Source: Escherichia phage ECO103 4-12-1
Length of the DNA: 64,000 nt
Strand: one strand, 5' to 3'
Sequence record: OR844650
A program made the position numbers and the translations under genes. A model generated the notes under the pieces. The model searched no databases. It was given only the letters and a program-made list of their open reading frames with translations, and was not told the origin of the DNA. Positions 3,172 to 3,281 of the stretch are shown here, one piece after another. How positions within the stretch are numbered: the stretch's first letter is position 1; every line of letters begins with the position of its first letter.

Positions 3172-3281
3172 TGTTTAAGCCCTTTTAGTAGTGAACTTTC
3201 ATTTATTTATTAATGATAACGAAATGTATTTTGTACTGATAAATATTGGTATATGACATTAACTCATACAAGGGAAATATT

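Follow-up and report, generated by a model that had tools for sequence, protein, structure and literature searches.

The octamer GATAAATA at positions 3238-3245 (+) of the window, a term used here for the whole analysed stretch of 64,000 nucleotides, recurs ahead of other structural genes and raises the question of which signal it represents and which factor would read it. The initial annotation had likened it to the late promoters of phage T4 and had proposed that a late sigma-like factor might be encoded outside the window. The window is part of a PBECO4/121Q-type Escherichia coli jumbo phage of about 348 kb, belonging to the genus Asteriusvirus in the Rak2-like group. Positions 1-25000 are 100% identical to Escherichia phage SHEFM2K (PQ390715.1, 266968-291967) and positions 27000-35000 are 99.8% identical to the same phage, while positions 40000-64000 share 97-99% identity with several members of the PBECO4/121Q-type group. 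Collinearity of the right-hand part with SHEFM2K is incomplete, an extra 3.4-kb tail-protein cassette being present in the latter near 51.3 kb. Gene calls for the window were taken from the annotations of SHEFM2K and G17 and then checked on the sequence. Trans-acting genes were located in SHEFM2K, which is the nearest complete genome (100% identity over window 1-25000, 97-99.8% elsewhere). The whole SHEFM2K genome was assembled from nine segments and 602 genes were called by a simple rule combining open reading frame and ribosome-binding site. Genome-wide starts depend on this simple caller, which reproduced 13/13 annotated starts in the comparison made. The public records of G17 and Munch contain terminators and ribosome-binding sites only and no promoter annotation, and an Rfam scan of the window returned no match.

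All four sites on which the T4 comparison had been based exist. The octamer at 3238-3245 is separated by 36 nt from the ATG at 3282, the start of a gene labeled collagen-like in which short Gly-X-Y runs are indeed present, and its copy at 29882-29889 (-) is located 35 nt from the tube ATG at 29846. The related elements AATAAATA (14029-14036) and TATAAATC (14042-14049) both lie upstream of the ATG at 14070, and AATAAATA is found again at 32956-32963 (-), with the sheath ATG 50 nt away. What recurs by position is the core [A/C]TAAATA, but the octamers themselves are not over-represented. GATAAATA (3 copies in the window vs 5.9 expected) and TATAAATA (1 copy vs 11 expected) were both rejected as the motif, their first base being unconstrained. 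The recurring unit is [A/C]TAAATA, and neither the reported G nor the first T of the T4 box belongs to the signal here. The element TATAAATC at 14042-14049 is unlikely to be a working box because a perfect ATAAATA stands at the usual 33 nt from the same ATG 14070; its invariant last A is moreover broken and the ATG is only 20 nt away. The original site list had missed ten sites, including 3204-3210 (-) and six CTAAATA variants, and the window holds in total 14 likely late promoter sites and one orphan (Table 1).

Table 1. Likely, candidate and orphan boxes and intrinsic terminators in the window.
Feature	Position	Strand	Context
Box ATAAATA	3204..3210	-	32 nt upstream of structural gene 2674-3171 (-); divergent partner of the 3239 site
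Box ATAAATA (GATAAATA without G)	3239..3245	+	36 nt upstream of collagen-like tail/fibre gene 3282-4409
Box CTAAATA	7574..7580	+	35 nt upstream of long tail fibre gene 7616-13141
Box ATAAATA	14030..14036	+	33 nt upstream of structural gene 14070-16034; directly after terminator-like T-run (terminator annotated in G17)
Box ATAAATA	25645..25651	-	43 nt upstream of structural gene 25059-25601; within 3' end of upstream CDS
Box ATAAATA	26170..26176	-	28 nt upstream of virion gene 25605-26141; overlaps stop codon of upstream gene
Box CTAAATA	29101..29107	-	36 nt upstream of tail tube gene 2 (28288-29064); C variant kept in six other genera
Intrinsic terminator hairpin	29117..29138	-	Ends tube-1 transcript; few bases before tube-2 box (terminator-promoter module)
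Box ATAAATA (second reported GATAAATA)	29882..29888	-	35 nt upstream of tail tube gene 1 (29160-29846)
Intrinsic terminator hairpin	30214..30235	-	Ends sheath transcript
Box ATAAATA	32956..32962	-	50 nt upstream of tail sheath gene 30242-32905
Box CTAAATA	34814..34820	-	31 nt upstream of neck / head-tail adaptor gene 33991-34782
Candidate box CTAAATA	36578..36584	-	47 nt upstream of small gene 36288-36530
Candidate box CTAAATA	47550..47556	-	29 nt upstream of gene 47080-47520
Box CTAAATA	50801..50807	-	27 nt upstream of Rz-like spanin (lysis) gene 50399-50773
Orphan ATAAATA	51382..51388	-	Intergenic, next ATG 135 nt away; edge of 3.4-kb indel vs SHEFM2K
Box ATAAATA (within TATAAATA, full T4 consensus)	60809..60815	-	34 nt upstream of 898-aa gene 58078-60774

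The two boxes of the region 3172-3281 stand back to back with 28 nt between them, as a putative divergent late promoter pair, and a similar divergent pair of boxes occurs at 200719/200753 of SHEFM2K. A 32-aa ORF of the SHEFM2K record, M2K_0541 (window 3203-3301, -), spans this region and is probably spurious. The gene at 3282-4409 heads an operon extending to about 7478, after which a terminator is annotated in G17. Further downstream, the 64-nt gap (13142-13205) from the long fibre gene to gene 13206-13985 is devoid of a late box; a perfect inverted repeat, GGTGTCAC...GGGTGACACC, is located there just ahead of the ribosome-binding site and is possibly a leader or processing hairpin inside the fibre operon.

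Two or three of the window sites (36578, 47550 and 51382) are followed by genes without evident late function, and the SHEFM2K counterpart of gene 47080-47520 is annotated as a starvation-inducible regulator. The function of the orphan is doubtful. On its 3' side (window 51247-51431, -), a perfect sigma-70 promoter (TTGACA, 17 nt, TATAAT, ~51316-51288) is followed by a hairpin and T-run that abut the ribosome-binding site of the gene with its start at 51246, a layout which could be attenuator-like. At the corresponding locus, SHEFM2K carries three tail-protein genes.

By count, the motif is not more frequent than base composition predicts, but its position upstream of start codons is strongly non-random, and position, not count, is the non-random property of the motif. 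The zone from 25 to 55 nt upstream of a start codon, in the sense orientation, covers 1.96% of the window positions. It contains 14 of the 25 copies of MTAAATA found in the window (binomial p=4.6e-18), although these 25 copies represent a depletion when compared with the 56.4±6.8 obtained in dinucleotide shuffles. ATAAATA taken separately has 11 copies on both strands, eight of which lie in the sense orientation at 28-50 nt upstream of a start, within the same zone (p=3.4e-12). Among the 21 possible orders of five A and two T, it is also the least frequent in the window (11 vs 24-56 copies), and A+T-richness is therefore not the explanation.

The same picture was obtained when every 7-mer of the SHEFM2K genome was ranked by its enrichment in the -20 to -62 sense zone of the 602 genes. 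The top-ranked word is ATAAATA, with 29/56 copies in a zone comprising 3.2% of positions (p=1.4e-28); words overlapping it also rank after it, and CTAAATA has 14/39 copies in the zone (p=8e-12). The genome as a whole contains 56 copies of ATAAATA vs 200-231 expected (Markov order 1-3), an approximately 4-fold depletion, and 221 copies of TAAATA vs 609-707 expected under the same orders, which makes it about 3-fold rarer. TATAAATA occurs 16 times vs ~58 expected. The depletion of ATAAATA and TAAATA indicates selection against stray copies. A motif described as 'middle' in phage CBB, TGAAACG, was examined as well and discarded, 0/54 of its copies being located in the upstream zone of the SHEFM2K genome.

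In order to describe the element itself, a profile was built from 44 sites chosen by the pattern [A/C]TAAATA, so that the TAAATA positions are fixed by the selection. With this reservation, box positions -11 to -6 are identical to those of T4. The first box position, corresponding to -12 in T4, is A in 33 sites and C in 11, and any of the four bases may precede it at -13 (14 A, 6 C, 11 G and 13 T). Over the 45 bases ahead of the box (-45 to -1), the information content stays under 0.3 bit throughout, and there is therefore no -35 element. Since the box occupies -12 to -6 in T4 numbering, the sixth base after it is +1; this base is a purine in 37/44 sites (29 A, 8 G, 7 T and no C), a preference that would fit a start site. 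The five bases following the box show a weak excess of A+T (74% vs 66% for the genome). In SHEFM2K, box and start codon are most often 30-39 nt apart; the T4 gene 34 promoter TATAAATA, used as a positive control, has its ATG 34 nt downstream.

A late sigma-like factor outside the window, as had been foreseen, was located in SHEFM2K approximately 26 kb to the left of the window. The protein, M2K_0523 (240629-241468, -), is annotated 'sigma factor for late transcription' and has CBB_244 as its top PHROG match. Its gene directly adjoins those of SbcD (gp47-like) and SbcC (gp46-like); the T4 order is 55 ... 47-46, on the same strand. Residues 125-262 match phrog_234, 'late sigma transcription factor' (E=8.4e-18), and comparison with T4 gp55 using BLASTP gave 24% identity (E=2e-4); a phmmer search of M2K_0523 against PDB sequences gave no match. 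Sequence and fold homology, the latter comprising a sigma region-2-like domain plus a helix-loop-helix, place it in the gp55 family. The fold match agrees with the published structure (Shi et al. 2021, PMC7892883), in which gp55 is homologous to region 2 and carries a helix-loop-helix motif. M2K_0523 is 279 aa long, vs 185 aa for T4 gp55, and belongs to a family of 326 proteins, all of about 280-330 aa. All 326 homologs found share a conserved N-terminal stretch of ~120 aa, and this region (123 aa in the Pfam search) has no Pfam, PHROG or PDB match. The C-terminus, ...IEIELNMIERKNEDGSV, lacks by inspection the T4-type clamp-binding motif (SLDFLYEAND), and the motif of the cognate clamp may itself differ.

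The T4-late-like interpretation given at the outset is supported by box position, by conservation, by the classes of target genes and by the gp55 homolog. A probability of about 85% is given to the reading in which the boxes are T4-type late promoters read by the host RNA polymerase together with the phage gp55-like sigma. Reading of the box by the gp55 homolog, initiation at this place and late timing are inferred. Each promoter would consist of a single -10-like element, [A/C]TAAATA (-12 to -6 of the T4 box TATAAATA), devoid of a -35 element. The E. coli RNA polymerase core associated with the region-2-only sigma of the phage would open the DNA at the box, and transcription would start at the purine 6 nt downstream, giving leaders of about 20-45 nt ahead of the ribosome-binding site. 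Such promoters would drive short units on both strands, often with a hairpin terminator just upstream, encoding sheath, tube, neck, fibres, other virion proteins and spanin. Avoidance of the box elsewhere in the genome would keep the late polymerase from the wrong places.

Recognition of the box by a different sigma factor is improbable. The candidates would be M2K_0334 (SHEFM2K 126458-127423, -), a full-length member of the sigma-70 family, or host sigma-70, for which ATAAAT would serve as a poor -10 hexamer. A second phage sigma possessing regions 2, 3 and 4 does make this conceivable, but no -35 element, which factors endowed with region 4 ordinarily require, is conserved ahead of the box. 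Promoters of sigma-70 type moreover form a class of their own in SHEFM2K, identified by the upstream words GTATAAT, TATAATG and GGTTGAC; TTGAC and (G)TATAAT(G) occur elsewhere in the genome, never coincident with a late box. In the SHEFM2K genome, a late box and a near-consensus sigma-70 promoter never occur at the same gene, and the two classes occupy complementary parts of it. The sheath/tube module has no excess of sigma-70-like matches (38 vs 39.8 expected), which also speaks against such a reading. The box is finally identical to the T4 gp55 element at 7/8 positions, and the phage encodes a close structural homolog of gp55. The (G)TATAAT(G) and GGTTGAC class was seen to dominate 50-175 kb of the SHEFM2K genome; in the window it is found ahead of non-structural genes, for example those starting at 18499, 21433, 33914, 37467 and 54665.

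The genes located downstream of the boxes are mostly those expected for gp55-dependent late promoters. About 36/48 suitably spaced sites of SHEFM2K stand ahead of late-type genes or of the first gene of an operon containing them. The targets comprise head functions (major head protein, scaffold-like protein and prohead protease), tail functions (baseplate hub and wedge, tail fibres, sheath, both tube genes and neck), the large terminase, endonuclease VII, spanin and many virion proteins supported by mass spectrometry. The sites use both strands, and only 2/48 fall in a 112-kb block of small early genes. Many boxes have a hairpin terminator within the few preceding bases; this is seen behind the sheath and tube-1 genes and likewise ahead of 14030 and 60809, the latter box coming directly after a terminator-like hairpin and T-run. 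The organisation of the structural genes is therefore one of short terminator-promoter units.

Several boxes follow terminator T-runs directly and their distance to the start codon is fixed, two features which would also suit a leader element acting on the RNA (processing, leader stability or translation) or mere terminator-proximal AT-rich DNA. Either role in place of a promoter is nevertheless very improbable. Many boxes stand immediately 3' of an intrinsic terminator, past which an upstream transcript would rarely extend to the box, and a new start is therefore needed. At the back-to-back boxes 3204/3239, which serve genes on opposite strands, no transcript arrives from upstream that could be processed. 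Avoidance of the box on both strands throughout the genome is consistent with a DNA signal, and the sequence of the box is that of the known DNA element of a homologous sigma.

Conservation was assessed at orthologous loci found via the tube protein, of which eight were compared. ATAAATA is present upstream of tube gene 1 in 8/8 relatives: RaK2 (Klebsiella), GAP32 (Cronobacter), CBB (Pectobacterium), Munch (Salmonella), fHe-Yen9-04 (Yersinia), XaC1 (Xanthomonas), Pseudomonas phage PA5oct and Agrobacterium phage Atu_ph07, the tube proteins of the last two being only about 35% identical. The sheath upstream region was captured in the first six, and its ATAAATA is invariant in all of them. Upstream of tube gene 2, CTAAATA is kept in each of the six Rak2-like phages. 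Whether A or C stands at -12 is in this way conserved gene by gene across six genera, with C always found at tube 2 and A always at sheath and tube 1, which suggests that promoter strength or timing may be tuned. The flanking intergenic sequence and the base before the box vary among relatives; in XaC1, the tube-1 box sits inside CTAAATAAATA.

Chance matches in AT-rich intergenic DNA, conceivable in a window of 65-70% A+T in which the octamer GATAAATA is not itself enriched, are refuted by the positional enrichment (p≈5e-18 in the window, ~1e-28 genome-wide), by the permutation counts, which make ATAAATA the rarest 7-mer of equal composition and yet one concentrated upstream of genes, and by conservation of the box at the orthologous tube-1 position in eight relatives from several host genera.

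The spacer from sheath to tube is 395 nt long in the window (29847-30241) vs about 100-122 nt in RaK2, GAP32, CBB, Munch and XaC1, and the Yersinia phage has an extra ORF at this place. The spacer of the window contains a doubtful 41-aa ORF (30037-30162) and a CTAAATA at 30075-30081, and has no Rfam match. In PA5oct (NC_071039.1, 119115-127681), ATAAATA is located 38 nt upstream of the tail tube gene, the corresponding distance in Atu_ph07 being 31 nt. The promoter list published from PA5oct RNA-seq contains only TATAATA and TTGAC, which are sigma-70-like motifs, and a late promoter class may have been overlooked in that study.

Promoters of the proposed T4 type raise the question of the other late factors, and among the gp55-, gp33- and gp45-like genes to which the initial annotation had pointed, a gp55 homolog and a clamp, the latter recognized by structure, are present, but gp33 was not detected. 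The clamp loader is RFC-like, T4 gp44 matching M2K_0430 with E=1.5e-21. [quoted passage not shown] The clamp-loader neighbour M2K_0429 was considered as the clamp and proved to be an NT5C/HAD nucleotidase. The gp33 protein is small and fast-evolving. The best phmmer hit for it among SHEFM2K proteins has E=2.2; a 27-sequence profile, composed of relatives from T4-like coliphages only, gave at best E=2.7 with hmmsearch and 5% with hhalign over 511 proteins, and a loose pattern search for a C-terminal motif common to the polymerase and small proteins yielded nothing convincing. M2K_0483, a candidate for gp33 by its position beside the gp32 and UvsX genes, is UvsY. According to Iyer et al. 2021, gp33 orthologs exist in this jumbo phage group.

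The undetected gp33, together with a tail-less gp55 homolog carrying an extra domain, would be compatible with a variant coupling of late transcription to replication, or with none. It is possible, although on balance doubtful, that Rak2-like/Asteriusvirus phages use a streamlined form of T4 late transcription in which the ~120-aa domain of the gp55-type sigma replaces gp33, or alternatively one that is independent of the clamp. The domain would take over the job of gp33 by contacting the beta flap and/or by tethering to the divergent PCNA-like clamp, and a separate gp33 and a C-terminal clamp-binding tail would both be dispensable. Engineered gp55-gp33 fusions work in T4, and a streamlined one-polypeptide sigma, if true, would be their natural counterpart.

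The system proposed here can be compared with those already described. In T4 late promoters, a TATA box at -10 (variants are cited from -13) is followed closely by AT-rich DNA, and the -35 region is not conserved; 32 of the 50 late sites are perfect, nine have A at -13, and late transcripts are produced from both strands (PMC2988020). The phage examined here resembles T4 (Geiduschek & Kassavetis 2010, PMC2988020; PMC7892883) in its single -10 box devoid of a -35 element, in the frequent purine 6 nt after it as a putative start, in the ~35 nt from box to ATG and in the presence of virion-gene units on both strands. The resemblance extends to a region-2-only gp55 homolog encoded beside gp47 and gp46 homologs and to a PCNA-type clamp with its RFC-like loader. 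It differs from T4 in lacking a conserved T at -13 and in its frequent C at -12, in a gp55 homolog that has about 120 additional conserved aa at its N-terminus and is devoid of an LDFL-type tail for clamp binding, in the undetected gp33, and in a clamp too divergent for sequence methods, the system being known here from sequence and predicted structure. In Aeh1, the late consensus has (a/g)C at -13/-12 and reads (a/g)CTAAATA (PMC2988020). The C variant at -12 is thus shared with Aeh1, and A at -13 is also found in T4 (9/50 sites), but unlike in Aeh1 the A and C forms coexist here in one genome with a choice conserved gene by gene. Late consensuses have also been derived in silico for KVP40, 44RR and cyanophage S-PM2 (cited in PMC2988020).

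A precedent comes from the same clade. Using MEME, Buttimer et al. 2017 found ATAAATA at 35 sites upstream of CBB structural genes and compared it with the T4 late promoter; they reported the motif in GAP32 as well (citing Abbasifar et al. 2014), identified the gp55-like CBB_244 and found no gp33 or gp45 homologs (PMC5259590). The present phage shares with CBB and GAP32 the ATAAATA upstream of structural genes and the gp55-like sigma, both predicted in silico. CBB and GAP32 belong to other genera (Mimasvirus), and their reports do not include the CTAAATA variant, the genome-wide avoidance or the +1 purine; no gp45 was detectable in the CBB report, whereas a clamp was identified here by structure. 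The word promoter is never used in the papers on the E. coli members phAPEC6, Sharanji, JP4 and fEgEco12, which contain no promoter analysis, and occurs once in that on EJP2; the literature searched contained no experimental start-site mapping, timing data or biochemistry for the clade. As the promoter system had already been predicted in sister phages, the finding is largely ordinary and expected. Less expected are the strong avoidance, the gene-by-gene choice between A and C, the clamp that had been missed earlier and the extra domain of the gp55 homolog, for which neither a clamp-binding tail nor a gp33 partner was detected.

The sites described above provide a usable map of late promoters for widely isolated E. 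coli jumbo phages which are therapeutic candidates and have genomes that are over 80% 'hypothetical'. Where [A/C]TAAATA stands about 35 nt ahead of a gene, that gene can be marked as late, with a probable role in the virion or in lysis, and transcription units can be drawn on this basis. The late logic of T4, with its -10-only promoter and gp55-type sigma, would in this way be extended to 350-kb phages and to their relatives on Pseudomonas and Agrobacterium. The clamp, the extra domain of a gp55 homolog devoid of the tail and the undetected gp33 point to a testable difference in the coupling of late transcription to replication.
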